From positions 21,650 through 85,649 of the forward strand of contig DMCH01000158.1 of the NCBI GenBank assembly GCA_003446775.1: a stretch of DNA of 64,000 nucleotides. Direction: 5' to 3'. This DNA is from Chloroflexota bacterium. Lineage in GTDB: Bacteria > Chloroflexota > Dormibacteria > Dormibacterales > Dormibacteraceae. A program made the position numbers and the translations under genes. The notes beneath the pieces were generated by a model. It ran no database searches, was not told where the DNA came from, and saw nothing but the letters and a program-made list of their open reading frames with translations. The stretch's first letter is position 1. Each line of letters starts with the position of its first letter. This document shows positions 2,096 through 29,483 of this stretch, one piece after another.

Positions 2096-5000
2096 CTACG
2101 TCAACGTGTACGAGGTCCCGGGGAAGTAAGCGTCGTAGGCGGCCGCGCTGCTCGCGTCGCGGACCCAGACCGAGTAGCGGTAGGTGCCGGCGGGCAATCC
2201 TGTCGTGTTCCAGCTGAATGAGGCGTTGCCGGAGTAGGCCTGCACAATCGTCCAGCTGCCGCCAGGGGCAAGGAGCCAGAACTCGTAGCGCGGATTGGTG
2301 CACCCCGAAGCGCTGGCGGTGATGGTGATGGTGGTGCCATGCGCTTGCGGGGAAGTGGGCGCCGCGGAGGCGGTCACCGAGGTGCAAGGCGTGGTCGTGA
2401 GCGTGTACACCGTGCCGGGGACGAACGCGTCGTAGGCGGCCGAGCTGCTGACGTCGCGCACCCAGACCGAGTAGCTGTAAGTGCCCGCGTGCGGGTTCGT
2501 GTTCCAGTTGAATGTGGCGCTGCTCGAATAACCCTGGGCAATCGTCCAGCTGCCTCCGGGGGACAGGATCCAGAACTCGTAGCGCGCGTTGGGGCAGCCT
2601 GAGGCGCTGGCCGAGATGGTGACGAGGGTGCCCGCCGCCTGCGGGGAGGCCGGCGCAGCGGAGGCGGCTACTGAGGTGCATGTCGCAGAGGTCAGCGTGA
2701 ACGCGATACCCGGCAAGTAACTGTCGTAAGCGGCCGCGCTGCTGGCGTCGCGGACCCACACGGAGTAGCGGTAGATGCCGGCAGGCGGGGTCGTGTTCCA
2801 GTTGAACGTCGCACTGGCGGAATAGGCCTGCGCGATGGTCCAGCTGCCTCCAGGGGTCAGGAGCCAGAACTCATATCGCGGGTTGGGGCAGCCCGAGGCG
2901 CTGGCGGTGATGGCGACGGGCGTGCCAGCTGTTTGCGGGGAGGCCGGCGCCGCGGACGCGGTTACCGAAGTACAGGCCCCGGACGTCAGCGTGTACGGGA
3001 TGCCCGGGACGTATGTGTCGTAGCTGGCGCCCACGCTGCTGGCGTCGCGAACCCAGACTGATACGTAATAATTGCCGACCGCATCGCCGGTGGTGTTCCA
3101 GTTGAAAGTGGCGCTGCTGGAGTAAGCCTGCGCCACTGTCCAGCTGCCTCCTGGAGGAAGAATCCAGAACTGGTAGCGCGGGTTAGGGCAAAAAGAGGCG
3201 CTGGCGGAAGCGGTCACAACGATCTGTGTCCCGACGAACTGCGGCGAAGGCACGCTCGGGCTCAGAGTCGCGCCGGTGCATGCGTTGATCACAAAGGGAA
3301 CGACTGTGTACTGGTCGTAGGAGACCGGTCGTGTGGAGTCACGGACGTCGACCTCGAAGTTGTAGTTACCGCCTGGCGCGCCCGCCGTCGACCACGTATA
3401 TGTGCGCGACGTGCTGTAGTCCTGCAACAGCGTCCAACCTGCGCCTGGGGTCTGGTAGTAGAACCTGTAGAGCGGCGAGGGACAGATGGTCGTGGTTGCC
3501 GTGAAAGTGACCATGGTGCTCGGGCCCTGCGGCGAGGGCGGGTTGGCCGTGAGTGTGGGCGCCGTGCAGGCCGGGTTGGCAAGCGTGAACGTGACGCTGG
3601 CGCTCGCCTCAGCGGCGGTGGTCGCTCCCACATTCCTCACCTCGGCCCTGAGGCCGTAGCCACCTAGGGGCTGTCCGGTGGTGTTCCAGCTGTACGTGCT
3701 CGCGCTGCCATAGTCCTGGACGACGCCATAAGACTGGTTCGGTTTGGCAATCGAAAAGCGGTACTGCGGTGTGCCGGGACAGGTCGCGGCGGCAGTCAGC
3801 ACAACAGTGGCGCCGGGAGTCTGCGGCGGCGCGGGACTGGTCGCAAGTGTCACCGCGCTGCAGGCAGTCAGGACAAACGAGAGCTGGACGCTCTGCATCG
3901 TGTTCGGCGCAGCTGCTCCGCCCTTGGCGTCGAGCTCGAGGCCATAGGTCCCGCCAACACCGTTTCCGACCCACGTGAACGTGCTGCTGGCGCTGAAATC
4001 CTGCACCACCGCGTAAGCGCCACCAGGCGGCTGGATCATGAACCGGTACTGCGGTGCGCCCACACACGTCGCGCTGCCCGTGAGCAAGACCTGCGAGCCG
4101 GTCGGCTGAGGCGATGTCTTGTCCGTCGTAAACGCGGCGCCGGAGCACGACGTCAGCGAGAACGGCATCGACTGGGATGCTTCAGACGCAGAGCTGACTG
4201 ATTTCACACGCACGTCGACGGAGAAGATGTATGCGCCGTAAGGATTGCTCGTCGTGTTCCACGCATAGGTCGCGGTCGGGCTATAGGGCTCGACGACGCT
4301 GGTGGTCCCGCCCGGAGACGTCTCCGAGAACTGGTACTCGGGCGTACCCGAGCATGTGCCCACCGCTGTGAACACAACCTGCGTGCTCGGCAGCTGCGGC
4401 GACGCGTGGTCGGCGGTGAGCGACGGCGTCGAACAGCGCGCGAGGCGGAACGAAATCGTCGCCACCGTGTCGTAGGTCACCGAAGAGCCGGCGTTCCTGG
4501 CGGCAACCTGCACGGAGTACGTGCCGAGCGGTGTGTTTGATGCTGTGTTCCACGTCCACGTGCTGGTGGTCGAGTAAGCCCGTGCCACAGCCCATGCGCC
4601 GCCAGGAGGCTGGAGGTAGAACTGGTACTCCGGGGTGCCCGCGCAGAACGCGCTGCCTGTGAACGTGATGGCTGCGCCGGGGATCTGCGGCGTCGGCTTG
4701 TCGGCGCTGATGGCGCCGGCGGAGCACTGGCCGAACTTGCTGAGGATCATGTTCCAGAGCTCCGGCGCTCCACCGCCGTAGTTCAGGGCGAAGATGCCCG
4801 CACCGCGCAGGCCGTCGCGGATGACGAGGTCGTACTTGTTGCCCAGCGCCGTGGCGTCGTCCCAGTACATCTCGCGAGTGCAGCCTGCGGTCGAGCTCGT
4901 CCACGTGTCCCAGCGCGTGGCGCTGCCAGCGTCGCGCGTGACGCGGTGGATGTGGTAGTCGCTGTTGTAGACGTATCCGTTCTCAGTCGAAGCGTCCAGG

Positions 5001-6139
5001 TACCCGTCGGCTACTGCCTGCGTGCTTGCCACCGCATTTTCCGGGGCGTTGCTGGGCGTGTAGCCGGCGACGCATACCTTGCGGCCGTAGTAGGGCATGC
5101 CCATGATCACCTTGGACCCGGGCACCACCGCCCTGTACTCAGACGAGGCGCGGCCCTGGTTGAAGAGGTACGTCGAGAGCGGCGACGTGGGGCCGATGCA
5201 GAAGCTGGGGCAGCTCAGCGGCGGCGAGTCCCAGTTTGCGTACTCCATGTCGTACGCCATCACGAAGAATGAATCCGCGTAGCTCGCGAGAGCAGCGATG
5301 TCGAAGAAACCGAGAAACGGACAGGTGCTGCAGTCGCGAAAGCCGGCCGAACCTGAGTACGTGTCCACGGAGATGTATGAGGACGGGAGCGCCGCCCGCA
5401 TGTTCTTCACGAATGTCGTGAAGAGCGATTGAGAAGACTGCACCGCCCCGGTGCTTGGATCCGTGCAGTTTGTGTTGTTGCTCTCGTAGTCGATGTTTAC
5501 CCCGTCGATACCCTTATCGGCGACCTGCGCGACAGTGCGCTGGATCGTCAACGTGCTCCGTGGAGCCTGCAGGGCCGAGCACATGTTGGGCGTGCCGTAT
5601 GTCGAGTCGAACATGATGAGGGTCAGGACCACCTTCGTCCCGTTCGCGTGAGCGGTTTGGATCAATCCCGGCACAGGTCCATAGGGGTCATTCCAGATGG
5701 ACAGCGCGGAGTCATCGCTGAAGTCGCCGCTCCACGTGACATGCACTCCGAAGTACGCGACGGTCGACAGCAGTGACATGTTCCAAGACGGATAGCCGAC
5801 CGTGGGATCGCCAAGGCTGCTCGCAAACGCAAAGCCGAAAACCTCGCGAAACATCCGGGGGTTGCTCACGTCCTGAACGGATGTGGTTTTGGCGAGGGCA
5901 AGCGGCGCGTAGGTGTGAATAGGGGCGGTGGCTTCGAACTGCGCCGCGGCGGCCATCGTGGGCGATGCGCTGTCTCGGAACTTCCGCAAGGCCGCACTCT
6001 CAGGGGCGATCGCAGCCGCGGGCCGAGCCGCGTGAGGCGGGCTCGACGCCTGAACCGGGCCCACCGGGATCAGCGCAATCAGCGGCACCACACCGCAGAT
6101 CAATGCTCCGACGAAATGGCGCAACCGGTGCTTGGACAT
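2096..6139 (-). CDS. Secreted GH18-like glycosidase with nine C-terminal ~97-aa two-Cys repeats
   Basis: Track ORF 2096..6169. ATG 6139 is preferred: MSKHRLRHFVGALICGVVPLIALIP is signal-like and has the same MSKH start as the gene at 15605. GH18 catalytic-region motif GIDGVNIDYE at 5483-5506. Repeats run from Cys codon 4726 to the last codon at 2099. Confidence 0.85.
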   Translation of the reverse strand: MSKHRLRHFVGALICGVVPLIALIPVGPVQASSPPHAARPAAAIAPESAALRKFRDSASPTMAAAAQFEATAPIHTYAPLALAKTTSVQDVSNPRMFREVFGFAFASSLGDPTVGYPSWNMSLLSTVAYFGVHVTWSGDFSDDSALSIWNDPYGPVPGLIQTAHANGTKVVLTLIMFDSTYGTPNMCSALQAPRSTLTIQRTVAQVADKGIDGVNIDYESNNTNCTDPSTGAVQSSQSLFTTFVKNMRAALPSSYISVDTYSGSAGFRDCSTCPFLGFFDIAALASYADSFFVMAYDMEYANWDSPPLSCPSFCIGPTSPLSTYLFNQGRASSEYRAVVPGSKVIMGMPYYGRKVCVAGYTPSNAPENAVASTQAVADGYLDASTENGYVYNSDYHIHRVTRDAGSATRWDTWTSSTAGCTREMYWDDATALGNKYDLVIRDGLRGAGIFALNYGGGAPELWNMILSKFGQCSAGAISADKPTPQIPGAAITFTGSAFCAGTPEYQFYLQPPGGAWAVARAYSTTSTWTWNTASNTPLGTYSVQVAARNAGSSVTYDTVATISFRLARCSTPSLTADHASPQLPSTQVVFTAVGTCSGTPEYQFSETSPGGTTSVVEPYSPTATYAWNTTSNPYGAYIFSVDVRVKSVSSASEASQSMPFSLTSCSGAAFTTDKTSPQPTGSQVLLTGSATCVGAPQYRFMIQPPGGAYAVVQDFSASSTFTWVGNGVGGTYGLELDAKGGAAAPNTMQSVQLSFVLTACSAVTLATSPAPPQTPGATVVLTAAATCPGTPQYRFSIAKPNQSYGVVQDYGSASTYSWNTTGQPLGGYGLRAEVRNVGATTAAEASASVTFTLANPACTAPTLTANPPSPQGPSTMVTFTATTTICPSPLYRFYYQTPGAGWTLLQDYSTSRTYTWSTAGAPGGNYNFEVDVRDSTRPVSYDQYTVVPFVINACTGATLSPSVPSPQFVGTQIVVTASASASFCPNPRYQFWILPPGGSWTVAQAYSSSATFNWNTTGDAVGNYYVSVWVRDASSVGASYDTYVPGIPYTLTSGACTSVTASAAPASPQTAGTPVAITASASGCPNPRYEFWLLTPGGSWTIAQAYSASATFNWNTTPPAGIYRYSVWVRDASSAAAYDSYLPGIAFTLTSATCTSVAASAAPASPQAAGTLVTISASASGCPNARYEFWILSPGGSWTIAQGYSSSATFNWNTNPHAGTYSYSVWVRDVSSSAAYDAFVPGTVYTLTTTPCTSVTASAAPTSPQAHGTTITITASASGCTNPRYEFWLLAPGGSWTIVQAYSGNASFSWNTTGLPAGTYRYSVWVRDASSAAAYDAYFPGTSYTLT
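2099..4726 (-). repeat. Coding tandem array, 9 units of the two-Cys YEFW repeat
   Basis: Units read from the translation. The five N-proximal units are divergent (e.g. CSAGAISADKPTPQIPGAAITFTGSAFCAGTPEYQFYLQPPGGAW). The four C-proximal units are near consensus (CTSVTASAAPASPQ...SGCPNPRYEFWLL). Confidence 0.9.
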
Positions 6140-6155
6140 GGGCAAAACCAAACGC

Positions 6156-6185
6156 ACTCTAGGCTCCATCGCCCATCAAGGTCAA
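6156..6185 (-). promoter_or_regulatory. Putative sigma70-type promoter, TTGACC-18-TAGAGT
   Basis: Minus strand: TTGACC (6185-6180), 18-nt spacer, TAGAGT (6161-6156), 16 nt before ATG 6139. The CTAGAGTG motif recurs upstream of the genes at 58180 and 15605. Confidence 0.4.
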
Positions 6186-6204: not shown

Positions 6205-7872
6205 TTAAGGCTTGAGGATTGCGCCTTCAGATGCCGATCCGACGAGCAGCGCGTACCTGGCGAGGACGCCCTTGCGGTAGTTCGGCTCGGGTGGCGACCA
6301 GCCCTTCAATCTCGCCGCGATGTCGACGCCTTCGACCGCCAGCTTCCGGCTTTCCACATCGATGCTGATGATGTCCCCGTCCTGGATCGCCGCGATTGGG
6401 CCGCCAACCGCAGCCTCGGGCGCGACGTGACCGATCATCAACCCGCGGGTGGCGCCCGAGAAACGGCCGTCCGTGACCATCGCAACCGTTTCCCCCAGGC
6501 CCTCGCCCACGATCGCCGCTGTGACCTGAAGCATCTCTCGCATCCCCGGCCCGCCGCGCGGGCCTTCGTATCGAATCACGACTGTGTCGCCGGGCTTGAT
6601 CTTCCCGCCCACCACCGCCGCGAAAGCGTCCTCTTCGCGATTGAAAACGCGAGCCGGGCCGCGATGGTTCCTCGGTGTGTGCTGCGTGACCTTGACCACG
6701 GAACCGTCGGGTGCGAGCGAGCCGCGAAGAACCACAAGCCCTCCCTCATCACGCAGCGGTCGCGCCAGCGGCGCCACCACCTCCTGGCCCGGCGTCTCTT
6801 TCACGTTCTCGCATTCCTCGCCGAGCGTGCGGCCGGTGACAGTGAGCGCATCGCCGTCGACGAAGCCGCCTTCGATCAACCTCTTCGTCAGCACCCCGAT
6901 GCCGCCGGCACGGTGCAGCTCGACCGCGGCAAAGCGGCCGCCCGGCTTGAGGTCGCACAGCAGCGGGGTGCGCCGGCTGATGCGGTCGATGTCGTCGATG
7001 TCGAGCTCCACGCCCACTTCGCGGGCCATGGCTAGGAGGTGCAGCACCGCATTGGTCGAGCCGCCGCTCGCCGCCACGGCGGCGATGGCGTTCTCGAACG
7101 CCCGCCGTGTGAGGATGCGCGAGGGCCGAAGGTCCTGTTCCAGCACCGAAAGGATCAGGCGGCCCGCCGCTTCCGCCGCGCGAGGCTTTTCCGGGTCCAT
7201 CGCAGGAATCGAGTTGAAGCCGAACGGGGAGAGTCCGATGACCTCCATCAACATCGACATCGTGTTCGCGGTGTACTGGCCGCCGCACGCGCCAGGTCCA
7301 GGGCACGCGACCAGCTCGAGCTCCGCCAGGTCAGCTTCGCTCATCTTGCCCGCGGCGACAGCCCCGATCGCCTCGTAGACCTCACCTACAGCCACGTCTC
7401 GACCCCGAAACCGCCCCGGCATGATCGAGCCGCCATAGAGAAGGATGCCCGGGCGGTCGAGCCTGATGAGTGCGATCGCGGAAGCCGGGATCGTCTTGTC
7501 GCACGCGCAGATGGCGCACATGGCGTCGAACTGGTGCCCGCGACCGACGAGCTCGATGGAGTCGGCAATGACCTCGCGGCTGACCAGCGAGGTCTTCATG
7601 CCCTCGCTGCCCATCGTGATGCCGTCGGAGATCGCGATGGTGTTGAACTCCATCGGGTTGGCGCCCGCGGCCTTGATGCCAGCCTTGACCGGGACCGCCA
7701 GCTCGCGCAGCCCGAAGTTGCAGGGCATGGTCTCGGTCCAGCAGTTGGACACGCCGACAAACGGCTTGTTGATGTCCTCGGCGGTCAGCCCGATCGCATA
7801 TAGAAAGGATCGAGCCCCAGCCCGGTCGCGGCCCTGATACAGCGAGCGGCTCGGGAGCTCTCGAGGTGGCAC
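6205..7872 (-). CDS. ilvD: Dihydroxy-acid dehydratase
   Basis: 555-aa ORF. Reads [48 protein letters not shown], and [14 protein letters not shown], typical of IlvD/Edd. Confidence 0.92.
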
Positions 7873-7904: not shown

Positions 7905-9191
7905 ATGATCCGTCGCGTCACGATGGCGCAGCTCACCAAAGACGTCTCCGAATCGCCCCTCCTGGGCTACAGCCGATGGGCGCTCGCGGTCAATGTCGGC
8001 GCGATGTTCTCGTACGTCTGGCGCTTCAAGGTAGGGCCGGTACCCACCAATGTCCTCGAGATCCTGGTCCTCGCGACTATCGCGCTCTACATAGCGGGGC
8101 GGCTCCAAACAGGACCCTGGCGACCCCCACGCACGGGACTCGAGATCCCGACCGCTCTTCTATTGATTGCCGGCCTCGTCGCCATCGCCGTGTCGCCCAA
8201 CCACGTCGGCGCGCTCGGCTTCTATCGCGCGTACTTCATCGAGCCCGTCATCCTGTTCTACGTCGCGATCGATCTGCTGCGCACGCCGCAGCACTTCCGC
8301 ATCGTGCTGCTCGGCCTGGCGGCTGGTTCCAGTCTCTTCGCGATTCTCAATCTCGGCGCATGGGCGATCGCATTGTTGAGCCACCAGCCGATCGCGACCG
8401 CCAACGCGCCGGAGGCTCTTTACACAAGCCCCAATTCCGTCGCGATCTTCCTCGAGGCCCCTTTTGCGATTGCAGCCGGCTACGTCCTCTATTCGGATGA
8501 CCGGCGAGAGCGCTGGATCGCCGCCGCGTGCTTGGTGTTCCTGCTGGCCGCCCTGCTGTTGACGCTTTCGAGGGCGGCCTGGCTGACCCTCGCGGCGCTC
8601 GCCCTGGTGGCTGTCATCACGATGCCGAACCTGAGGGTGAAGCTCGCGCTCCTCGGCGGCGCGCTGATCGGCGGATTCGCGGTGGCACAGATCCCCTTTG
8701 TCCACCAGCGGCTCGCCCGGCAGCTGGACTTCAGCTTCAAGGACAACACATTCGAGGGCCGGGTGCAGATCTGGAGTGACACGCTCCGCATGCTGCGCGA
8801 CCGCCCGATCTTCGGCACCGGCCTGCGCGGATACGAGAGGGTAATGACGCCCTACATGACGGGGAACCGGCTCCCGGAGCTGTATCCGCACAATCTGTTT
8901 CTCGCCATGTGGGCCGAGCTCGGCCTGCTCGGCCTGCTCGCGTTCGTCATTCTCCTGGCCATGCTCCTCTGGCGAGGATGGCGAGGCTTCTATCGAGCGA
9001 ATGGCTTCGCCCGGCCGCTGCTGTGGGGCACCTCGGCTGCCTTCGTTGCAGTGGCCGTCCACGGTATGTTCGACACGCCTTACTACAACAACGACATCTC
9101 TCTGGAGTTCTGGATCGTGGCCGCGCTGGAAGTCGCGGCGCTGCGCATGATGACCGCCGATGCGACCAGAAACCAGGACTTCGCGCGTTGA
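7905..9191 (+). CDS. Wzy_C-domain polytopic membrane protein (O-antigen ligase / polymerase / O-oligosaccharyltransferase family)
   Basis: Multi-TM protein. LTLSRAAWLTLAALALV and IFGTGLRGYERV...YPHNLFLAMWAELGLLGLLAFV fit the Wzy_C signature. The track start GTG 7866 would overlap the ilvD start, so ATG 7905 or 7923 is more likely. Confidence 0.75.
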   Translation: MIRRVTMAQLTKDVSESPLLGYSRWALAVNVGAMFSYVWRFKVGPVPTNVLEILVLATIALYIAGRLQTGPWRPPRTGLEIPTALLLIAGLVAIAVSPNHVGALGFYRAYFIEPVILFYVAIDLLRTPQHFRIVLLGLAAGSSLFAILNLGAWAIALLSHQPIATANAPEALYTSPNSVAIFLEAPFAIAAGYVLYSDDRRERWIAAACLVFLLAALLLTLSRAAWLTLAALALVAVITMPNLRVKLALLGGALIGGFAVAQIPFVHQRLARQLDFSFKDNTFEGRVQIWSDTLRMLRDRPIFGTGLRGYERVMTPYMTGNRLPELYPHNLFLAMWAELGLLGLLAFVILLAMLLWRGWRGFYRANGFARPLLWGTSAAFVAVAVHGMFDTPYYNNDISLEFWIVAALEVAALRMMTADATRNQDFAR

Positions 9192-9201
9192 GCTAGCCAG
9201 A

Positions 9202-11859
9202 GTGAAGGGACTGCGACTCGCGGGCACCGCTGCCGTGAGCTTGCTTTTCAGCGGGATTGTGGTCGTGCAGGCAGCCCCTGCCACACATGCCGTCATCCCT
9301 TTCACGGCCCAACCCAAAGCGGCGGCTGTCGTCCCTAACGGCAGCTGGCCCGTGTACCACCATGACAACGCGCACACGGGCTACGACGGCACCCAACCAA
9401 CCTCGTCAACAGCGACCACCGGGTGGGTCAGCGGGACGATGGATGCTCCGGTCTACGGCTCACCGCTGGTCTACGGCGGAATCGTCTACTCGGCCACCCT
9501 CAACAACACCGTTTACGCGTTCAACCAGGCCGACGGGTCGACCCTGTGGAGCAGGAACCTCGGAGCGCCCACGACCACCGGCTGGAACTGCGGCAACGTC
9601 TCCTTTCAGGGAATCCTGGGCACGCCGGTCATCGACACGGCCGCAGGCCGGATCTACGTCGCCGCCCTGGGATCGGATCACGTCTACCGCGTGTTCGGCC
9701 TAGGCCTTGCCTCCGGAGCAACCCAACTCACTACCGCTATCCCAACCACCATCGGTGACGGGACCTTCGACTGGACGATTCAGCAGCAGCGCGGCGCCCT
9801 TGGACTCGCCAACGGCTTCGTCTACGTTCCCTTCGGAGGGCGGTGGGGCGACTGCGGCAGCTACCACGGTTGGGTGGTCGGGGTGCCCACGAATGGCGGC
9901 ACGACGCCCGCGGTCTATGAGACGCCCTCAACGGGATCAGGCATCTGGGCGGCTGGAGGGGTGGTCACCGACGACGCCACCGGCAACGTCTTCTTCGCCA
10001 CCGGGAATGCGATGCCCCGCTCCTCTTGCCCCACCGCGGTCAACAGCGACTCCGTGATCCGGACCGGCCCGGCACTCGGCACGGCGACATCCTTCTTCCA
10101 GCCGCAGGACTGGCTGGCCAACTGGTGCGACACCGACACGGACCTGGGCTCGGCCAGCCCCACGCTCATCAGCCCCAGCCTCGCCTTCATGTCCGGCAAG
10201 TACGGCCAGGGCTTCCTGCTCGACCCTACAAACCTTGGTGGCACGAATGGGCAGATCTTCCCTGCCCGCTCACCTTATGCCGGCGCCGACGTATGCGTGG
10301 GCAACCACAACGACGCAACCTTCGGGTCCTTCGCCTATGCCGCTCCCTACATCTACCTTTCCTGCCAGAGCCAGGGCATCGTGGGCCTCAAGGTCGACAC
10401 CACGGCAAAAACCTTCAGCCTCTGCGACGCCACCTGCGCAGCTCCTTCATGGAATTCGGGCGCCGGCAAGGTTTACGGCCCGCCGATCGTCGCGGGCGGC
10501 ATCGTGTGGGCGGTCGATACCAACGGCTCCGGGCTCACCGGGTTCGATGCGGCCACGGGCACCTCCGTCTTCCAGAGCGGCACTTTCCCGGCCCACAATT
10601 TTTCGACCCCGAGCGAGGCGGGCGGGCAGGTCTTCGTCGGGTCGGACACAGTCATACGTTCGTTCAACCTGGTGGTCAACGTTTGCCCGTCCGTGACTGC
10701 GTCCGCGGCGCCGGCCTCACCGCAGACGTCGGGCACGCCGGTAACCGTCACCGCCGTCGCCTCTGGCTGCCCCAACCCGCGATACGAGTTCTGGATCCTG
10801 CCCCCGGCAGGTAGCTGGACTATCGCGCAGCCGTACTCCAGCACCGCCACTTACAACTGGAACACCACCGGACTGGCCGCGGGCACTTACAGCTACTCCG
10901 TCTGGGTCCGCGACGCCAGCAGCGCGGCAAGCTACGACTCTTTCTTCCCTGGCACGGCGTACACGCTCACGACGACGGCCTGCAACTCTGTGACCGCCTC
11001 GGCGGCGCCGGCCTCCCCGCAAACCGTCGGCACGCCCGTCACCATCACCGCCAGCGCCTCGGGCTGCACCGCGCGCTACGAGTTCTGGATCCTGCCCCCC
11101 GGAGGCAGCTGGGCGATCGCGCAGCCCTACTCCGGCACCGCGACATTCAACTGGACCACCACCGGACTCCCGGCCGGCACCTATAACTACTCGGTCTGGG
11201 CACGTGACAACGCCAGCGCGGCCGCGTATGACACGTACTTCCCAGGTACCGCGTATGTCCTTACGTCCGCGGCCTGTTCGTCGGTGACCGCCTCGGCCGC
11301 GCCGGCCTCCCCGCAATCGGCAGGCACCCCCGTCACCATCACCGCCACCGCCTCGGGCTGCCCCAACGCGCGCTACGAGTTCTGGATCCTTCCTCCGGGA
11401 GGCAGTTGGACGATCATGCAGGCCTATTCCGCCAGCGCGACGTTCAACTGGAATACCACCCCGACCGCCGGCGTCTACCGATACTCGGTCTGGGTCCGCG
11501 ATAACAGCAGCGCTGCCGCCTACGACACGTACTTCCCCGGCACCACGTACACGCTGACGACCACGCCCTGCACGTCGGTGACGGCCTCCGCGGCGCCGGC
11601 CTCTCCGCAGGCGCATGGCACGACGGTCACGATCACAGCCAGCGCCTCGGGCTGCACCAATCCGCGCTACGAATTCTGGATCCTGGCTCCAGGAGGCAGC
11701 TGGGCAATTGCTCAGGCCTACTCCAGCACCGCGACGTTCAGCTGGAACACGACTGGGCTGGCCGCGGGCGTCTATCGCTACTCGGTGTGGGCCCGTGACG
11801 CCAGCAGCGGCGCCGGCTACGACACTTACTTCCCCGGTACCGCGTACACGCTGACCTGA
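9202..11859 (+). CDS. Secreted PQQ-like beta-propeller protein with four C-terminal two-Cys repeats
   Basis: Track ORF 9160..11859. GTG 9202 avoids overlap with the upstream gene, but ATG 9160 is possible. Signal-like GLRLAGTAAVSLLFSGIVVVQAAPA. Propeller repeats include VYGSPLVYGGIVYSATLNNTVYAFNQADGSTLWSRNLG. Repeats start at 10684. Confidence 0.8.
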   Translation: MKGLRLAGTAAVSLLFSGIVVVQAAPATHAVIPFTAQPKAAAVVPNGSWPVYHHDNAHTGYDGTQPTSSTATTGWVSGTMDAPVYGSPLVYGGIVYSATLNNTVYAFNQADGSTLWSRNLGAPTTTGWNCGNVSFQGILGTPVIDTAAGRIYVAALGSDHVYRVFGLGLASGATQLTTAIPTTIGDGTFDWTIQQQRGALGLANGFVYVPFGGRWGDCGSYHGWVVGVPTNGGTTPAVYETPSTGSGIWAAGGVVTDDATGNVFFATGNAMPRSSCPTAVNSDSVIRTGPALGTATSFFQPQDWLANWCDTDTDLGSASPTLISPSLAFMSGKYGQGFLLDPTNLGGTNGQIFPARSPYAGADVCVGNHNDATFGSFAYAAPYIYLSCQSQGIVGLKVDTTAKTFSLCDATCAAPSWNSGAGKVYGPPIVAGGIVWAVDTNGSGLTGFDAATGTSVFQSGTFPAHNFSTPSEAGGQVFVGSDTVIRSFNLVVNVCPSVTASAAPASPQTSGTPVTVTAVASGCPNPRYEFWILPPAGSWTIAQPYSSTATYNWNTTGLAAGTYSYSVWVRDASSAASYDSFFPGTAYTLTTTACNSVTASAAPASPQTVGTPVTITASASGCTARYEFWILPPGGSWAIAQPYSGTATFNWTTTGLPAGTYNYSVWARDNASAAAYDTYFPGTAYVLTSAACSSVTASAAPASPQSAGTPVTITATASGCPNARYEFWILPPGGSWTIMQAYSASATFNWNTTPTAGVYRYSVWVRDNSSAAAYDTYFPGTTYTLTTTPCTSVTASAAPASPQAHGTTVTITASASGCTNPRYEFWILAPGGSWAIAQAYSSTATFSWNTTGLAAGVYRYSVWARDASSGAGYDTYFPGTAYTLT
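10684..11856 (+). repeat. Coding tandem array, 4 units
   Basis: TTCTGGATCC (codons F-W-I-L) recurs at 10789, 11083, 11380 and 11674, giving a period of 294-297 nt. Confidence 0.9.
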
Positions 11860-12033: not shown

Positions 12034-15000
12034 GTGCCTGAACCAGGTTCCTCCAGCGTGCGCGTCGCAGTGTTGGCAGCCATCTCAGCGCTGGCGCTGC
12101 TGACGCCGCTGCCGGCTCCAGCCGCGCCCCAGGTCGCTCCCCTGGCCGCCCACGCCGCGCTGCCCTCGGACCGGCTGCATTTCGGACTCGCCAACGGCCC
12201 GGGCACCGAGTTCAACTGGATGGTCGCGACTGGGATCCCCTGGCACTATCGCTACCAGTACCTTGCCGGCGGCATCAACACGGGCGGCGTCGCGGGCGAC
12301 CCTTGCGGCGCCAACGCGGGCTGGCAGACCTGGAATTCGCCCGCCGGTCAGTTCGTGACCGACTACATCACCGCCAGCGTCGCGCAGAAGGCCATCCCGG
12401 TGTTCACCTACTACGAGATCGTGCAGTCGAACCCGTCGCCGGGCAGCGAAAGCGCCGAGCTCACGAAGATCTCGACTGTCTGCACGATGCAGGCCTACTG
12501 GGCCGACTTCACGGCCCTGATGCAGAAGGTGGGCGCGTCGGGAGCGCAGGTCGTGGTGCACGTCGAGCCCGACTTCTGGGGATTCATGGAACACCAGAAT
12601 CCGGATCCCACACTTCTTCCAGCGGTCGTTGCGAGCTCAGGCAACGCCGACTTGGCCGGGTTGCCGAACACAGTGGCGGGGATGGGTCTCGCGTTCTTGA
12701 GGCTGCGCGACAAATACGCCCCGAACGCCCTGCTCGCCATCCACGCGAGCAGCTGGGCTAGCGGCGTCGACATCGCGACCGACCAGCGCACCACAATCGA
12801 CCCGGCCGCCGAAGCCGACGCGGTGATCGCGTTCCTCAACAAGGCGGGACTGGTCGGCAATCCCGCCGGCATTACGCCATGGGACGTGATCTTCAACGAC
12901 GTGGCCGACCACGACGCGGCTTGGTACGGGGCGCTGTCCAACGTCCATTGGTGGGATCGCAACAACGCAGTCTTCCCGAACTTCACGCGCTGGCTCGCGT
13001 TCATGAGCCGTATGCACACCGACACGGCATTGCCGCTGATCGAATGGCAGGTGCCTGTGGGCAACCAGTACTTCGACACCATGAACAACACCGACGGCCA
13101 CTACCAGGACAACCGCGCCGAGTACTTCCTCGCGCACCCGGGCCAGCTCACCGCGGCCGGCATCGTCGCGGTGCTCTTCGGCAAAGCCAACGCGGGCCAG
13201 ACCAACTACTGGGACGAGAAAGGCGACGGCATCACCAACCCGGCGCCGGTGAATTCGTGGCAGTGCAACCTCTGCAACAACCACACGTCGACGGTCGCTG
13301 ACGACGACGGTGGGTTCTTGCATATGGCGGTCGGCGCTTACTACCGAACATTCCCCGGCACGAGCTGCAACCTGTTTCCGAGCGACAGCGTCTTCAACAC
13401 CGACATCTCCTCGCTCCCGGTGAACACGCAGAGCCAAACGTGGATGGGCAACATGGCGCAGAACGCAAACCTGCACGCGGACATGGGCACGTTTGCGCAG
13501 TGGTATGGAATGCCGGTTAACGTTGCCCCGCCTCCCACCACGGGCGTGACGCCCACCTTCCTCTATAACTCGGACAGCGACCACCCGGCCGAGGGCTACC
13601 CAATCGATCAGAGCACGTTGATAGAAGGCGGGCCGAGCGCGCCCTCGACCAGCGACCGGCACGCGCTCGTCATCAACAAGAACCTCTGCAAGCTCTACGA
13701 GATCTTCAACCTGCAGAACTTCACCAACGGCCAGACGCCGTCCGCCGGTTCAGGCGCGACATGGGACCTGAGCTCGAATGCGATGCGGCCGAATGGCTTC
13801 ACTTCCGCGGACGCCGCCGGCCTGCCCATTACGCCACTGCTGCTCCGGCCCGACGAGATCCAGGCCGGCACCATCGCGCACGCGATCCGTTTCACCGCGC
13901 ACTGCACGAGCACTTATATCTGGCCCGCCTCGCACCAGGCCGGCTCGTGCAGCTCGGCCTTCCCGCCGATGGGCGCGCGGTTCCGGCTGCGGTCGAACTA
14001 CAACATCTCGAGCTTCTCGCCCACCACGCAGGCTGTGTTGCGCGCGTTCCAGCACTACGGCCTGGTCCTCGCCGACAACGGATCGGACTGGTTTTTCTCC
14101 GGGACCACCGATGACTGGTGGGGTACCGCGGCGGGCAGCCAGGTGATCAGCGAGCTGAAGACGATCCCGGCGGCGCAGTTCGACGCCATCGACGAATCAG
14201 GTCTTCAAGCGGCGGCCGGCTCGTACCAGGCGGGCCCCTACACGGCACCACGCTGCGCGACGGCGGCGATGAGCGCGGCTCCTTCATCGCCACAGTCCGC
14301 GGGCGCCACGGTGGTGGTAACCGCCTCGACCTCAGGCTGCCCCAACCCCCTGTACGAGTTCTGGCTCCTCGCCCCCGGGTCGAGCACCTGGACTGTGGCG
14401 CAGGCGTACTCCACTGCCGGCACCTTCAACTGGAACACCAGCGGCTCGGCCGCAGGCACCTATTACATCTCTGTGTGGATTCGCGACGCTGGCAGCGCCA
14501 ACAGTTACGACGCCTACTTCCCGGGTGCCCCGTACACGCTGACCTCGACCGGCTGCGCGTCAGTGACCGCCTCCGCGGCGCCCGCCTCCCCGCAAACAGC
14601 CGGCACGCCCGTCACCATCACGGCCACTGCCTCAGGCTGCAAGGCGCGCTACGAGTTCTGGATCCTGCCCCCTGGAGGCAGCTGGACGATCGTTCAGGCC
14701 TACTCCAGCACGGCTACTTTCGGCTGGACTACCACCGGACTCGCGGCCGGCACCTATCGCTATTCGGTCTGGGTCCGCGACGCCGCCAGCGCAGCGAGCT
14801 ATGACGCCTACTTCCCCGGCACCGCCTACGCGCTCACCTCTACGTCCACACCTTGCACAGCAGTGACCGCCTCCGCGGCGCCGGCCTCCCCGCAATCAGC
14901 GGGCGCCGTCGTCACCATCACCGCCAGCGCCTCGGGCTGCGCCAACGCGCGTTACGAGTTCTGGATCCTGGCCCCCGGGGGTAGCTGGACCATGGCTCAG

Positions 15001-15438
15001 GCCTACTCCAGCAGCGCCACTTTCGCCTGGAATACGACCCCGCCCGCCGGCACCTACCGCTACTCGGTCTGGGTCCGCGACGCCGGCAGTTCGGCTAGCT
15101 ATGACGCTTTCTCCCCCGGCACCACCTACACGCTGACGACCACGCCCTGCACTTCGGTGACCGCCTCCGCGGCGCCGGCCTCCCCGCAGGCCCATGGCAC
15201 CACGATCTCCATCACCGCCATCGCCTCTGGCTGCCCCAACCCTCAGTACGAGTTCTGGATCCTGGCCCCTGGGGGCACGTGGACGATTGCTCAGGGCTAC
15301 TCCAGCAGCGCCACATTCAGCTGGAACACGACCGGACTGCCCGCCGGCACCTACCGCTACTCGGTCTGGGTCCGCGACGCCAGCAGCTCGGCCGCGTACG
15401 ACGCTTTCTTCCCCAGTGTCACGTACACGCTGACCTAG
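12034..15438 (+). CDS. Secreted protein with two N-terminal domains of unknown function and four C-terminal two-Cys repeats
   Basis: GTG 12034. Signal-like VRVAVLAAISALALLTPLPAPAA. Domain 1 (to ~13330) has VVVHVEPDFWGFMEH and may be a glycosidase-like barrel (tentative). Domain 2 (~13330-14250) has FTSADAAGLPITPLLLRPDEI...HAIRFTA...LVLADNGSDWFFSG, a conserved hypothetical domain. Repeats start at 14254. Confidence 0.75.
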   Translation: MPEPGSSSVRVAVLAAISALALLTPLPAPAAPQVAPLAAHAALPSDRLHFGLANGPGTEFNWMVATGIPWHYRYQYLAGGINTGGVAGDPCGANAGWQTWNSPAGQFVTDYITASVAQKAIPVFTYYEIVQSNPSPGSESAELTKISTVCTMQAYWADFTALMQKVGASGAQVVVHVEPDFWGFMEHQNPDPTLLPAVVASSGNADLAGLPNTVAGMGLAFLRLRDKYAPNALLAIHASSWASGVDIATDQRTTIDPAAEADAVIAFLNKAGLVGNPAGITPWDVIFNDVADHDAAWYGALSNVHWWDRNNAVFPNFTRWLAFMSRMHTDTALPLIEWQVPVGNQYFDTMNNTDGHYQDNRAEYFLAHPGQLTAAGIVAVLFGKANAGQTNYWDEKGDGITNPAPVNSWQCNLCNNHTSTVADDDGGFLHMAVGAYYRTFPGTSCNLFPSDSVFNTDISSLPVNTQSQTWMGNMAQNANLHADMGTFAQWYGMPVNVAPPPTTGVTPTFLYNSDSDHPAEGYPIDQSTLIEGGPSAPSTSDRHALVINKNLCKLYEIFNLQNFTNGQTPSAGSGATWDLSSNAMRPNGFTSADAAGLPITPLLLRPDEIQAGTIAHAIRFTAHCTSTYIWPASHQAGSCSSAFPPMGARFRLRSNYNISSFSPTTQAVLRAFQHYGLVLADNGSDWFFSGTTDDWWGTAAGSQVISELKTIPAAQFDAIDESGLQAAAGSYQAGPYTAPRCATAAMSAAPSSPQSAGATVVVTASTSGCPNPLYEFWLLAPGSSTWTVAQAYSTAGTFNWNTSGSAAGTYYISVWIRDAGSANSYDAYFPGAPYTLTSTGCASVTASAAPASPQTAGTPVTITATASGCKARYEFWILPPGGSWTIVQAYSSTATFGWTTTGLAAGTYRYSVWVRDAASAASYDAYFPGTAYALTSTSTPCTAVTASAAPASPQSAGAVVTITASASGCANARYEFWILAPGGSWTMAQAYSSSATFAWNTTPPAGTYRYSVWVRDAGSSASYDAFSPGTTYTLTTTPCTSVTASAAPASPQAHGTTISITAIASGCPNPQYEFWILAPGGTWTIAQGYSSSATFSWNTTGLPAGTYRYSVWVRDASSSAAYDAFFPSVTYTLT
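14254..15435 (+). repeat. Coding tandem array, 4 units
   Basis: Units start RCATAAMSAAPSSPQ, CASVTASAAPASPQTAG, CTAVTASAAPASPQSAG and CTSVTASAAPASPQAHG. Confidence 0.9.
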
Positions 15439-15503: not shown

Positions 15504-15604
15504 GCCGGTGCGCGCGGAGCCCGCGGAGCTAGACGAACCAGGTCCTCCGGACGTTCGGAAGGCAAGATCGCCGGGCCCCTGGCCGTTGGGCTAGGGTGTC
15601 GCCC

Positions 15605-18265
15605 ATGTCCAAGCATGTCTTCGGTGCGCTCGCCAGGACCACGTTGAGGTCGCCGGCCGGACGCCGGCTCGCGGTCTCGCTGCTCAGCACCGTCGCGATC
15701 GGGTTCCTGGCGAGCCTGCCGGCCGCGGCTCCCTCTCCGGTCCAGCCCGGCACTACCCCTGCAGCCAGCGCCAGTTGGCTAACCCGCCTGAACCAGTGGC
15801 GGACCAGCACGGGTCTGGCCACCCTGACGGAGAACACGCTGTGGAGCCAGGGCGACGCCGCCCACGCTTTCTACATGGTCAAGACCGGCCTGGTCACGCA
15901 CTACGAGGACCCTGCCAACCCCTACTACACGGTCGCCGGCGACACCGCGGCCCAGAACTCCAACATCCAGGTCAGCTCCAGCACCGGCACCACCGACGAT
16001 CAGGCCATCGACTGGTGGATGGCGGCGCCATTCCACGCGATGAACATGATGGACCCGCGCCTGACACAGACTGGTTTCGGCTCGTACCGCGATGGCACTG
16101 CCTCGCCCTGGCAGGAGGGCGGTGCTCTGGACACCATCCGGGGCAATTCGTTCAGCGGCGGTTCGTACCCCGTCTATTTCCCCGGCAACGGCACCACCGA
16201 GCCGCTGACTAGGTATGGGGGCGGTGAATTCCCGGATCCTCTGCAAGCGTGTCCTGGATACAGCGCGCCAACCGGTTTGCCTGTCTTCATCCAGATCGGC
16301 GGCAACGTAAACACGACCGCCGGCGCCACTCACTCCTTTACAGGAAATGGAACCGCGCTCAGCCACTGCGTCATCGACTCGAGCAACTCCGCCGTCAGCA
16401 GCTACCTGTACACGAGGGGCGGCGTGATCCTTGTCCCCCAGCAGCCACTGCAGAGCGGCGTCAAGTACGTCGTCGCGCTCACGGTCAACGGAGTTGCCTA
16501 CACGTGGTCGTTCACGGTGGGGCCGTTTTTCGCCTCGGTCAGCGCTGTTACTCCGAATGCAGGCGCTTTGGCCGGAGGAACCACAGTCACGATCACTGGT
16601 GCGGGTTTCAACAATTCCATGGCCAGCGTCAAATTCGGAACCACATCGGCGACCAGTTTCAGCGTCGTGAACGACACGACCGTCACGGCGGTGAGCCCGG
16701 CCCACACCGCCGGCACGGTGGACGTCACGGTGACGACGGCCAGCGGCACCAGTGCCACCTCGGCGCTTGACCATTTCACGTTCGGAGCGTGCACTGCGGT
16801 GACTGTCTCCGCGGCGCCGCCCTCGCCGTCCACACCGGGCACGGCGGTCAAATTCACTGGCAGTGCTTTTGGCTGCTCCAACCCGCTCTATGAGTTCTGG
16901 ATCCTGGCTCCCGGGGGCAGCTGGACGATCATGCAGGCCTACTCGACCAGCGCCACGTTCAACTGGAACACGACCGGACTCGCGGGAGGCAGCTACCTCT
17001 ACTCGGTCTGGGTTCGCGACGCCGCCAGCTCAGCCGGCTATGACGCTTTCTTCCCCGGCACCGCGTACGCGCTGACGTCGTCGACCTGTGCGTCGGTGAG
17101 CGCCTCCGCGGCGCCGCCCTCCCCATCCATTTCCGGCACTGCTGTCACGATCACCGGCGCCGCCTTGGGCTGTGCCAACGCGCGCTACGAGTTCTGGATC
17201 CTGCCCCCTGGAGGCAGCTGGTCGATTGGGCAGGCCTACTCAAGCAGCGCCACCTTCAGCTGGAACACCACCGGCCTGGTCGCCGGCACCTACAGCTACT
17301 CGGTCTGGATCCGCGACGCCAGCAGCACGGCGAGCTATGACGCGTACTTCCCCGGTACCGGATACACGCTGACGTCCACGAACTGCACGTCGGTGAGCGC
17401 TTCCGCGGCGCCGCCCTCCCCGTCCATGTTGGGCACGGCTGTCACATTCACCGGCGCTGCCTCGGGCTGTCCCAACCCGCGCTACGAGTTCTGGATCCTG
17501 CCCCCTGGAGGCAGTTGGACGATTGCTCAGGCCTACTCCAGCAGCGCCACATTCAGCTGGAATACGACCGGACTCACAGCCGGCGCCTACAGCTACTCGG
17601 TCTGGGTCCGCGACGCCGCCAGCTCGGCCGGCTATGACGCTTTCTTCCCAGGTACCGCGTACACGCTGACATCGCCCTGTGCGTCCGTGACCGCCTCCAC
17701 AATGCCGGTGTCCCCGCAATCGGCGGGCACGGCTATCACCGTCACCGCCAGCGCCTCGGGCTGCACCAACCCGCGCTACGAGTTCTGGATCCTGGCCCCC
17801 GCGGGCAGTTGGAAGATTGCTCAGGCCTACTCCAGCAGCGCCACGTTCACCTGGAACACGACTCCGCCCTCCGGCACCTACAGCTACTCGGTCTGGGTCC
17901 GCGACGCCAGCAGCGCGGCAGCCTACGACGCTTTCTTACCCGGCACCACGTACACGCTCACGACCACGCCCTGCACGTCGGTGACCGCCACCGCGGCACC
18001 GGCCTCCCCGCAGGCCCATGGCACCACGATCTCTATCACGGCCAGCGCCTCGGGCTGCTCCAATCCGCGCTACGAGTTCTGGATCCTCGCCCCCGGCTCG
18101 AGCACCTGGACGATCGTGCAGTCCTACTCCAGCAGCGCCACATTCAGCTGGAACACGAGCGGACTGCCCGCCGGCACCTACCGCTACTCGGTCTGGGTGC
18201 ACGACGCCAGCAGCGCGGCCGGCTACGACGCTTACTTCCCCGGCACCACGTACACCCTGACGTGA
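15605..18265 (+). CDS. Secreted CAP/SCP-like + IPT/TIG protein with five C-terminal two-Cys repeats
   Basis: Track ORF starts at GTG 15596. ATG 15605 gives MSKHVFGAL, matching the MSKH start of the gene at 6139. CAP-like: WLTRLNQWRTSTGLATLTENTLWSQGDAAHAFYM. IPT/TIG-like: VSAVTPNAGALAGGTTVTITGAGF...VKFGTTSATSFSVVNDTTVTAVSPAHTAGTVDVTVTT. Repeats start at 16790. Confidence 0.8.
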   Translation: MSKHVFGALARTTLRSPAGRRLAVSLLSTVAIGFLASLPAAAPSPVQPGTTPAASASWLTRLNQWRTSTGLATLTENTLWSQGDAAHAFYMVKTGLVTHYEDPANPYYTVAGDTAAQNSNIQVSSSTGTTDDQAIDWWMAAPFHAMNMMDPRLTQTGFGSYRDGTASPWQEGGALDTIRGNSFSGGSYPVYFPGNGTTEPLTRYGGGEFPDPLQACPGYSAPTGLPVFIQIGGNVNTTAGATHSFTGNGTALSHCVIDSSNSAVSSYLYTRGGVILVPQQPLQSGVKYVVALTVNGVAYTWSFTVGPFFASVSAVTPNAGALAGGTTVTITGAGFNNSMASVKFGTTSATSFSVVNDTTVTAVSPAHTAGTVDVTVTTASGTSATSALDHFTFGACTAVTVSAAPPSPSTPGTAVKFTGSAFGCSNPLYEFWILAPGGSWTIMQAYSTSATFNWNTTGLAGGSYLYSVWVRDAASSAGYDAFFPGTAYALTSSTCASVSASAAPPSPSISGTAVTITGAALGCANARYEFWILPPGGSWSIGQAYSSSATFSWNTTGLVAGTYSYSVWIRDASSTASYDAYFPGTGYTLTSTNCTSVSASAAPPSPSMLGTAVTFTGAASGCPNPRYEFWILPPGGSWTIAQAYSSSATFSWNTTGLTAGAYSYSVWVRDAASSAGYDAFFPGTAYTLTSPCASVTASTMPVSPQSAGTAITVTASASGCTNPRYEFWILAPAGSWKIAQAYSSSATFTWNTTPPSGTYSYSVWVRDASSAAAYDAFLPGTTYTLTTTPCTSVTATAAPASPQAHGTTISITASASGCSNPRYEFWILAPGSSTWTIVQSYSSSATFSWNTSGLPAGTYRYSVWVHDASSAAGYDAYFPGTTYTLT
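16790..18262 (+). repeat. Coding tandem array, 5 units
   Basis: Units start CTAVTVSAAPPSPS, CASVSASAAPPSPS, CTSVSASAAPPSPS, CASVTASTMPVSPQ and CTSVTATAAPASPQAHG. Confidence 0.9.
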
Positions 18266-18282
18266 GTGGCCAAAGGCAACTC

Positions 18283-18331
18283 ACGCCCCTCTCCTACCCT
18301 CTCCCCGGGGGAGAGGGAGACTGATCTGAAG
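18283..18331 (+). repeat. Family-B palindromic element
   Basis: ACGCCCCTCTCCTACCCTCTCCCCGGGGGAGAGGGAGACTGATCTGAAG. Hairpin CCCTCTCC/GGAGAGGG at 18297-18317. Related copies at 29484-29543 and 32913-32954. Confidence 0.65.
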
Positions 18332-18345
18332 TAGACTCCCGCGCG

Positions 18346-29456: not shown

Positions 29457-29483
29457 TGTTGGTGCACGTCGAGATCACTTCCT

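Follow-up and report, generated by a model that had tools for sequence, protein, structure and literature searches.

What does a membrane protein resembling glycan ligases do when its gene lies among genes for secreted proteins that carry tandem immunoglobulin (Ig)-like repeats? This question is raised by a stretch of 64,000 nucleotides from a member of the Dormibacterales (assembly GCA_003446775.1, contig DMCH01000158.1, positions 21,650 to 85,649), which we refer to as the window and which has a G+C content of 65%. The gene in question encodes a protein with a Wzy_C domain, named Wzy_C1, and it was originally predicted to serve the multiple O-glycosylation of the repeats with a glycan built by an adjoining gene cluster. 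Dormibacterota and Patescibacteria, the two phyla in which we find such genes next to genes of secreted proteins, are abundant uncultured monoderm lineages, and their envelopes are almost uncharted. We conclude that Wzy_C1 is probably a glycan ligase of the WaaL fold that does not act on lipopolysaccharide (LPS) and is functionally tied to the Ig-repeat exoproteins and the neighbouring pathway. For the full statement, which is that Wzy_C1 moves the glycan made by the cluster onto the secreted Ig-repeat proteins, so that the acceptor is a protein, we estimate a probability of roughly 35%.

Wzy_C1 is predicted to have the fold of WaaL

The open reading frames (ORFs) across the window were scanned with Pfam and NCBIfam. 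As predicted, the ORF at 7905-9191 encodes a Wzy_C enzyme: the Pfam family Wzy_C (PF04932) matches it with 92.2 bits (cut-off 31.7; E 3.6e-26). The ATG start codon at 7905 is preferred over an upstream GTG at 7866, because the length then matches that of orthologs of 428 amino acids (aa). More than 120 orthologs, with identities of 59-90%, were found in metagenomes. An AlphaFold2 model of Wzy_C1, based on 66 orthologs, has a mean predicted local distance difference test score (pLDDT) of 86.9 and a predicted template modelling score of 0.89. Together with the hydropathy profile, the model describes a polytopic protein that has a WaaL-like glycosyltransferase C (GT-C) fold, in which a large external loop precedes the final helices. 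Foldseek returned WaaL (7TPG; E 3.2e-7, TM-score 0.56-0.58) as the top match of the model in the Protein Data Bank (PDB), followed by FtsW. Sequence searches of the PDB with Wzy_C1 and with its 66-sequence profile gave nothing useful.

Three residues of Wzy_C1, R223, R286 and H329, do not vary among the 66 orthologs. The Wzy_C region of characterized enzymes contains an Arg/Arg/His set, which is R215/R288/H338 in Escherichia coli WaaL and R224/R298/H349 in Neisseria PglL (PMC3643930). Judged by their position in the domain, and not by superposition, R223, R286 and H329 are presumably the counterparts of these catalytic residues. Such a set, like the pattern H-N-x9-G-x-x-G described in the WaaL literature, is typical of ligases.

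Comparison with the curated NCBIfam models placed Wzy_C1 closest to IctB (TIGR00947), which matches over nearly the full length with 72.7 bits (cut-off 366). This match adds little, because the function of IctB itself is unsettled, and literature searches on IctB together with Wzy_C yielded nothing functional. The second-best match is TfpM (35.8 bits, cut-off 600); PEP_O_lig_1 scores 34.7 bits (cut-off 188) and RfaL 31 bits (cut-off 277).

The Dormibacteraeota are described in the literature, at the level of the phylum, as a monoderm clade in which the outer membrane and also SLH and CsaB have been lost; the monoderm status assumed here is that of the phylum, and the genome itself was viewed over the 64 kb of the window. 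A role of Wzy_C1 as LPS ligase is unlikely, because the lipid A-core acceptor should be absent from such a host. Wzy_C proteins of monoderms are known as polymerases, as the S-layer O-oligosaccharyltransferases WsaB/WsfB (PMC2943079) and as the lipoteichoic acid ligase TacL (PMC5727136). The earlier caution that sequence alone cannot separate polymerase, ligase and O-oligosaccharyltransferase roles stands.

The Wzy_C1 gene forms a conserved operon with a repeat-protein gene

The Wzy_C1 gene was described as lying between two repeat-protein genes. This is correct for genes A and B, but ilvD (6205-7872, minus strand) also lies between A and the Wzy_C1 gene. If the ATG at 9160 is used, the ORFs of Wzy_C1 and protein B overlap, and no terminator-like site was found between them in the window. 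We then wanted to know whether this arrangement is conserved, and used as the denominator the 13 other Dormibacterota contigs that extend past the Wzy_C1 gene. A gene for a repeat protein with a PQQ-type propeller is located directly downstream, on the same strand, in 12 of them. The order of the genes around Wzy_C1 is kept across the contigs at 59-72% identity, and the gap between the ligase gene and the repeat gene is 2-7 bases where genes were called (contigs L001 and L003). The L001 ligase gene is flanked on both sides by repeat-protein genes of its own strand. As a rule, ilvD is found upstream in the opposite direction, with a gene for a GH18 repeat protein beyond it, and the vicinity also contains the glycan genes known from the window and genes for amidase, CAP and C-type repeat proteins. 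A conserved operon of a ligase gene and a gene for a secreted Ig-repeat protein is as expected of an enzyme and its substrate. Gene adjacency of this kind has been validated for the PglL homologs, of which 21 out of 31 adjoin pilin genes, and by the same logic the PglL-ComP pair was discovered and confirmed (PMC3643930).

A second paralog of Wzy_C1, 45-46% identical, is present in two contigs, in L013 at 4072-5304 and 8933-10156 and in L015 at 10001-11176. The L015 paralog adjoins a DegT gene, and a GH18 repeat protein is encoded close by.

Outside the phylum, the nearest relatives of Wzy_C1 are Patescibacteria proteins (L018-L083), which are 24-33% identical to it and have two signature peptides in common with it. 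Directly downstream of the gene for this homolog, 11 of 59 Patescibacteria loci encode a secreted protein of ~730 aa with Amidase_2 and Ig-like (N_BRCA1_IG) domains, and these 11 proteins share just 31-55% identity among themselves. Two further downstream proteins match the profile hidden Markov model (HMM) of the window repeats described below. The genes upstream encode a second Wzy_C protein (23/59), a Wzx protein (16/59) or a PMT_2-type protein (6/59), and the second Wzy_C gene and the homolog often overlap by 4 bases. A phmmer search with the amidase domain of protein G against the Patescibacteria ORFs found nothing, so that the amidase link there is one of Pfam assignments, and tblastn with the sugar-pathway proteins of the window detected no PglF, DegT or phosphoglycosyl transferase (PGT) within 10 kb of these loci. 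As judged from gene order, the Patescibacteria arrangement is a conserved envelope operon in reduced genomes. The literature on O-antigen ligases in Patescibacteria, as far as searched, held nothing functional. Another homolog, 42% identical, is encoded on a contig labelled Terriglobales (L017), inside a PglF/DegT/PGT/GT4 cluster and without repeat proteins, which links the family to this sugar pathway.

Eight secreted proteins contain 40 Ig-like repeats

An HMM built from the four repeats of protein B detects exactly 40 Ig-like repeats of ~97 aa each, the predicted number, in eight secreted proteins of the window (A-H). These proteins have a common plan, in which a signal peptide is followed by a module that differs between the proteins and then by four to nine repeats. 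All eight end exactly at the close of the last repeat, and neither a sortase signal nor a transmembrane anchor follows the arrays. Pfam detected no SLH, CWB2 or choline-binding modules in any of them. The Pfam family Y_Y_Y (triple-tyrosine) matches the repeats of seven proteins with 42-88 bits (gathering score 26.6), and those of protein H fall just below the gathering score, with 25.9 bits; the NCBIfam model PRK14081 matches the repeats under its cut-off. Each repeat in an AlphaFold2 model of two repeats (pLDDT 94.7) has seven strands arranged in a beta-sandwich, and the linker between the two domains is only 3-5 residues long. Foldseek searches with this model brought up an adhesin extender and otherwise only generic Ig/fn3 arrays.

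With a pairwise DNA identity of 73.5% at the median and 88.6% at most, the repeats are too divergent to be recent copies. They are aromatic-rich and consist for 28% of Ser and Thr and for 5.7% of charged residues, compared with 9.4% and 23%, respectively, for the cytoplasmic proteins of the window. Every repeat has Cys1, and 36 of the 40 have Cys29 as well; the two presumably form a disulfide. A homolog search with two repeats gave mostly short metagenome fragments named "hypothetical", which tell little about domain architectures. The Pfam family Peptidase_C30 (coronavirus main protease) also matches the repeats of seven of the eight proteins, with up to 51.8 bits (cut-off 25). Since not one of the stretches reaches the cut-off by itself, we rejected the assignment as an artefact of composition or repetition, which automated annotation could propagate.

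The last repeat of each of the eight proteins has a conserved signature of its own, TTPC...SPQ(A/V)HGTT with a His, which is unlike that of the internal repeats, and the same is true for the L003 orthologs. The repeat proteins stop exactly at Y-x-L-T, with Thr or Ser as the final residue of seven of the eight window proteins and of 25 of 27 orthologs (32/35 together).

The original prediction placed a stretch rich in Ser, Ala and Pro (S/A/P) at the start of every repeat. Most of the 40 repeats open with the typical form C-x-S-V-T-A-S-A-A-P-A-S-P-Q, but about six divergent ones have a loose form only, such as ISADKPTPQ in the first repeat of protein A (A1) and LSPHSSSAI in that of protein E (E1). 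The motif ASAAPASPQ occurs 15 times, ASAAPPSPS three times and ASASPAAPQ once, and in its typical form the sequence around the motif reads YTLT(S/T)xxC(T/A)SVTASAAPASPQ. Position 7 of the repeat is Ser or Thr in 95% and position 12 in 93% of the repeats; Pro10 is present in 88% and Pro13 in 95%. Ser7 is encoded by TCC, TCG, TCT, TCA and AGC. It is conserved at the amino-acid level, because codons of both the TCN and the AGC type are in use, and the sequences indicate that both Ser7 and Ser12 are maintained by selection at that level. Ser12, which is followed by Pro in the modelled turn, could be exposed.

A glycan-assembly cluster adjoins the repeat-protein genes

The cluster said to adjoin the repeat-protein genes is present with all its announced components according to the Pfam scans: a PglC-like initiating transferase, Wzx, glycosyltransferases and seven methyltransferases (Table 1). 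It also contains two UDP-sugar dehydrogenases and several epimerases. The glycan genes are well conserved between contigs, with identities of 76% for GT4, 76% for PglF and 79% for TylF. No LCP ligase, Wzz/polysaccharide co-polymerase (PCP) or CpsC/D was detected among the ORFs scanned over the 64 kb, in which not all small ORFs were included.

A second Wzy_C domain, which was predicted to be fused to Wzx, is indeed present in the 838-aa protein encoded next to GT4. It has the loop and the His motif in common with Wzy_C1 and is 35% identical to it over 130 aa. The sole NCBIfam match of the full-length protein is TfpM (E 0.0045), in the C-terminal Wzy_C half. The fusion partner was not recovered as Wzx: the N-terminal half (aa 1-440), with ~12-14 transmembrane (TM) segments, has no Pfam match at E<=10, and BLASTP against the Wzx of the window gave an E value of 0.1. 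The L001 ortholog (17092-18378; 62% identity) consists of this N-terminal half alone, so that the joining of this possibly flippase-like domain to a ligase or polymerase is specific to the lineage of the window. The L001 cluster lacks a second Wzy_C domain, and the ortholog of Wzy_C1 is the only Wzy_C protein seen there.

A Wzy_C remnant had also been proposed, at 55329-55646. Neither strand gave a Pfam match at E<=1, BLASTP comparisons with the two Wzy_C proteins had E values above 1, and the family HMM, run with its filters off, reached 0.5 bits in the N-terminal TM1 region only, and we therefore dropped the proposal. A 129-aa ORF (55329-55718, minus strand) located directly downstream of gene H contains one strong hydrophobic helix followed by KRTPLDLPL. 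Its resemblance to the start of Wzy_C1, the first helix and loop, is faint; should the ORF be a relic at all, it would derive from the N-terminus rather than from the Wzy_C domain.

Three other features of the cluster deserve mention. The 581-aa protein encoded inside the methyltransferase block has no Pfam, NCBIfam or PDB match. It has a DYDG motif after its first helix, and it is conserved (54%) in L002 (9672-11384), also within a methyltransferase block; it could be an unrecognized transferase of the GT-C type, which would make it another candidate, beside Wzy_C1, for the enzyme that transfers to protein or wall. The split transketolase between the TylF and DegT genes, a position also conserved in L001, suggests that the glycan may contain a two-carbon branched or extended amino sugar. 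Finally, a 724-aa ORF (39248-41422, minus strand) has UDP-glucose/GDP-mannose dehydrogenase domains from aa 272 only and overlaps an epimerase ORF (40624-42015); its true start is probably internal.

Table 1. Coordinates of the genes and features discussed (positions in the window).
Feature	Position	Strand	Basis or remarks
DegT aminotransferase, left flank	491-2011
Protein A: GH18, 9 repeats	2096-6169	-	Pfam, repeat HMM
ilvD	6205-7872	-
Wzy_C1: WaaL/PglL/TacL-type polytopic protein resembling glycan ligases, 428 aa	7905-9191	+	Pfam Wzy_C, AlphaFold2 model, orthologs
Protein B: signal peptide, PQQ_2/BamB-like beta-propeller, 4 Ig-like repeats	9160-11859	+	Pfam, repeat HMM
Terminal repeats (examples)	11569-11856; 15148-15435; 17972-18262
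Protein C: unclassified N-terminal domain, 4 repeats	12034-15438	+	Pfam, NCBIfam, repeat HMM
Protein D: CAP and TIG domains, 5 repeats	15596-18265	+	Pfam, repeat HMM
Protein E: unclassified N-terminal domain, 6 repeats	18346-21870	+	Pfam, NCBIfam, repeat HMM
Protein F: BNR/Ycf48-like propeller region, 4 repeats	21941-26068	+	Pfam, repeat HMM
Protein G: Amidase_2 (N-acetylmuramoyl-L-alanine amidase), fn3, 4 repeats	26115-28289	+	Pfam, NCBIfam, repeat HMM
Methyltransferase block	28329-34000		FkbM 28329-29456; methyltransferases 29571-30296 and 31639-32913; FkbM 32954-33931 (-)
581-aa protein: ~8 TM, soluble C-terminal domain	30293-32038		Inside methyltransferase block; family unassigned
Wzx-type flippase (Polysacc_synt)	35638-37128	+	Pfam
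GT4 glycosyltransferase	43633-44853	+	Pfam; 76% ortholog in L001
838-aa fusion: polytopic N-half aa 1-440, second Wzy_C domain aa 589-751	44850-47366	+	Pfam, E 4e-13, 49.8 bits
PglF-like 4,6-dehydratase	47435-49375	+
TylF methyltransferase	48966-50132	+
Split transketolase (N and pyrimidine/C subunits)	50133-51886	+
DegT aminotransferase	51876-52973	+
Small PglC-like initiating transferase (Bac_transf)	53075-53578	+
Two further class-I methyltransferases	53514-55230	+
Protein H: GH18, 4 repeats	55757-58180	-	Far side of glycan cluster; Pfam, repeat HMM
Further sugar genes	58307-64000		Epimerases, GT2 (59294-60283, -), hexapeptide acyltransferase, DegT, GFO/IDH oxidoreductase
DegT aminotransferase beyond cluster	61942-63111

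Discussion

The family, the fold, the invariant residues, the operon and the conservation of the cluster were observed, and from them we infer a donor, an acceptor and sites as follows. Wzy_C1 would be the terminal transfer enzyme, a GT-C ligase at the outer face of the membrane, of a pathway that uses a glycan linked to undecaprenyl diphosphate (Und-PP). The cluster would build a methylated glycan on this lipid carrier, with the small PglC-like transferase starting the synthesis. The first sugar would probably be of the 4-amino-4,6-dideoxy-N-acetylhexosamine type, made by the PglF-like dehydratase, a DegT aminotransferase and an acyltransferase. Glycosyltransferases and methyltransferases would then extend and decorate the glycan, Wzx would flip it across the membrane, and Wzy_C1 would transfer it en bloc onto hydroxyl groups of the secreted Ig-repeat enzymes whose genes are transcribed together with its own. 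The candidate sites are exposed Ser and Thr residues, among which are Ser12 (in the turn Pro-Ala-Ser-Pro, bracketed by Cys1 and Cys29), the Ser/Thr residues of the 3-5-residue linkers, the disordered N-terminal leaders and the conserved C-terminal Thr/Ser; a mucin-like stalk is excluded from them. A farther-reaching version, which we put forward tentatively, concerns an undescribed system of surface display in monoderms that lack SLH and CsaB: a small WaaL-like ligase would covalently join a family of Cys-bracketed Ig-repeat exoenzymes, encoded in its own operon, to a heavily methylated glycan whose first sugar is of the bacillosamine type. The attachment would occur either by multiple O-glycosylation of the repeats or at the C-terminal Thr/Ser, as with TfpO/TfpM, and the Patescibacteria would have a simpler form of it.

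Several results weigh against protein O-glycosylation. Some concern the enzyme. The curated NCBIfam families of oligosaccharyltransferases and ligases, TfpM, RfaL and PEP_O_lig_1 alike, all score far under their cut-offs. The Pfam families PglL_A (PF15864), with its motif as defined in PMC3643930, and Wzy_C_2 are absent from Wzy_C1 even at E<=10, Wzy_C alone being reported, and Pfam found no tetratricopeptide repeat (TPR) motif, a feature of the WsaB/WsfB type, in Wzy_C1 or its neighbours. Other results concern the putative sites. Residues 3-9 of the repeat (SVTASAA) form beta-strand A in the two-repeat model and PASP forms the A-A' turn (pLDDT 94-98). The S/A/P stretch is not the low-complexity stalk or linker segment for which it had been taken, because it is the first strand and turn of a confidently folded Ig domain. 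Ser and Thr make up 33% of the first 14 residues and 27% of the remainder of the repeat. The motif is loose in the orthologs from L001-L003, and the S/A/P start is missing in the Patescibacteria relatives of the repeat. Outside the repeats of the eight proteins, [AP][ST]P occurs 13 times against an expected 10.3, which is no enrichment. The C-terminal Thr/Ser is a lead only, and a weakened one, because 26 of 32 internal repeats also carry Thr at their last position. Arrays that lie at the C-terminus and are followed by no anchor are more easily understood as modules for anchoring or binding than as a stalk, and the literature searched held no glycoprotein data for Dormibacterota. Of the idea that the repeats are O-glycosylated, the functional tie of the ligase to the repeat proteins and the neighbouring glycan genes held up, in 12 of 13 contigs and by its recurrence in Patescibacteria, whereas the stalk, the PglL motifs and the conservation of the motif did not.

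These results leave room for a different acceptor. The cluster could make a conserved glycopolymer, either a secondary polymer of the cell wall or one anchored to a lipid. Wzy_C1 would, in the manner of TacL, pass this polymer on from its lipid carrier to a membrane glycolipid or some other acceptor in the envelope, or would polymerize it, while the C-terminal Ig repeats would retain the amidase, GH18, CAP and propeller enzymes on it non-covalently. We regard this as possible, and as only slightly less likely than protein O-glycosylation. The repeats would then behave as choline-binding proteins do on pneumococcal teichoic acid, or CWB2 proteins on the polymer PSII of Clostridioides difficile; these two families and the SLH proteins, in which a terminal tandem module is likewise common to diverse wall-active enzymes, all bind a wall glycopolymer. 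Such a mechanism would replace the SLH/CsaB system that Dormibacteraeota lack, and it suits the finding of eight paralogs with unrelated N-terminal domains, one type of C-terminal tandem module and no other anchor, in which the last repeat bears a signature of its own. The repeats, rich in Ser, Thr and aromatic residues and poor in charge, have a composition that resembles that of carbohydrate-binding modules. The genes for cell wall proteins (cwp) of C. difficile adjoin the PSII locus. The high conservation of the GT4, PglF and TylF genes is more in keeping with an essential wall polymer than with a variable antigen, and peptidoglycan amidases, such as protein G, are classic polymer-anchored autolysins. 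As to precedents, TacL is a Wzy_C ligase of a monoderm (PMC5727136), and tandem CWB2 motifs are reported to anchor surface proteins of C. difficile to PSII (PMC4973711). However, Ig-like or triple-tyrosine domains are not a known wall-binding module, the structural matches of the repeats being generic, and no LCP ligase was detected among the window ORFs scanned. Moreover, it is the gene of a late-step ligase and that of a secreted protein that are tightly coupled, in Patescibacteria even without sugar genes within 10 kb, and this coupling is explained more directly by an enzyme-substrate relation. Protein O-glycosylation and anchoring to a polymer are not mutually exclusive.

In Gram-positive genomes, the majority of Wzy_C proteins serve as polymerases of polysaccharide loci. 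Wzy_C1 might likewise be a polymerase or ligase of the ordinary Wzy type that makes an exopolysaccharide or a capsule and has no specific relation to the repeat proteins. The repeats would then bind substrates or act as spacers in secreted hydrolases of external polymers such as chitin or the walls of prey, and the co-location of the genes between ilvD and leuCD would reflect a general neighbourhood for envelope and secretome functions. We consider this reading unlikely. The L001 ortholog of Wzy_C1, as the only Wzy_C protein seen there, could be a polymerase, the L017 homolog lies in a sugar cluster without repeat proteins, and GH18 and amidase enzymes with Ig/fn3 modules are common among secreted soil enzymes. 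What speaks for a specific relation instead is that the same-strand adjacency to the repeat gene is retained in 12 of 13 contigs despite ~40% divergence, and that a related pairing is found in another phylum. In addition, no Wzz/PCP was detected among the scanned ORFs, and the Arg/Arg/His set that is invariant in Wzy_C1 is the one we associate with ligases.

The locus offers a handle on how Dormibacterota decorate or retain wall-remodelling enzymes without SLH and CsaB. If protein glycosylation is confirmed, the range of hosts and acceptors known for O-oligosaccharyltransferases would widen, and a compact enzyme of 428 aa with a short structured sequon would become available for glycoengineering. 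If the covalent display holds, no earlier system of protein glycosylation by a Wzy_C enzyme would be on record for these uncultured phyla, and its acceptors would be wall hydrolases in place of pilins or S-layer proteins. If the repeats bind a polymer instead, they would define a new wall-anchoring module.

Comparison with known systems

Among the characterized systems, WaaL of Cupriavidus metallidurans (7TPG) is similar in having a Wzy_C domain, a length of ~400-430 aa, a polytopic topology, a large external loop and the Arg/Arg/His set. Wzy_C1 differs from it in that it is only 15% identical, scores 31 versus 277 bits with the RfaL model and belongs to a phylum described as monoderm and without LPS. 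IctB of cyanobacteria is the nearest curated match, far under its cut-off.

The relationship with PglL, PglS, TfpO and TfpM is one of genetic context. The Wzy_C1 gene adjoins a co-oriented gene for a candidate acceptor, a bacillosamine-type sugar pathway lies nearby, and the candidate acceptors end in Thr or Ser. TfpM (420-440 aa) and TfpO (PilO; 440-470 aa) both modify a C-terminal Ser or Thr, and Wzy_C1, with 428 aa, falls within their size class. The Cys-bracketed start of the repeats, rich in Ser, Ala and Thr, recalls the PglS sequon CTGVTQIASGASAATTNVASAQC, which is a resemblance only. Unlike these enzymes, Wzy_C1 lacks PglL_A and Wzy_C_2, scores 35.8 versus 600 bits with the TfpM model and occurs in a monoderm host; its candidate acceptors are Ig-repeat exoenzymes and not pilins, and the ligase gene precedes that of its target instead of following it.

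The S-layer loci of Geobacillus stearothermophilus and Paenibacillus alvei (WsaB/WsfB; PMC2943079) are alike in that a monoderm has a Wzy_C transferase gene beside a surface-protein gene and a glycan cluster with O-methylation. In contrast to these loci, there is no TPR in or beside Wzy_C1, the neighbour being a beta-propeller, SLH domains are lacking and no S-layer protein is identifiable in the window; instead of one self-assembling S-layer protein, there are eight different enzymes with common repeats.

TacL of Streptococcus pneumoniae is a Wzy_C ligase of a monoderm that moves a polymer built on Und-PP to an acceptor other than LPS (PMC5727136). Seen together with the choline-binding proteins, and with CWB2/PSII of C. 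difficile, it resembles the present locus, where wall enzymes including amidases likewise have a common terminal tandem module. The fold of the repeats differs, being an Ig-like beta-sandwich rather than a choline-binding hairpin or CWB2, and the likeness to these wall-binding modules is one of function only. Although mechanistically unsurprising until an acceptor is shown, the conserved operon and its recurrence in a second phylum are new.

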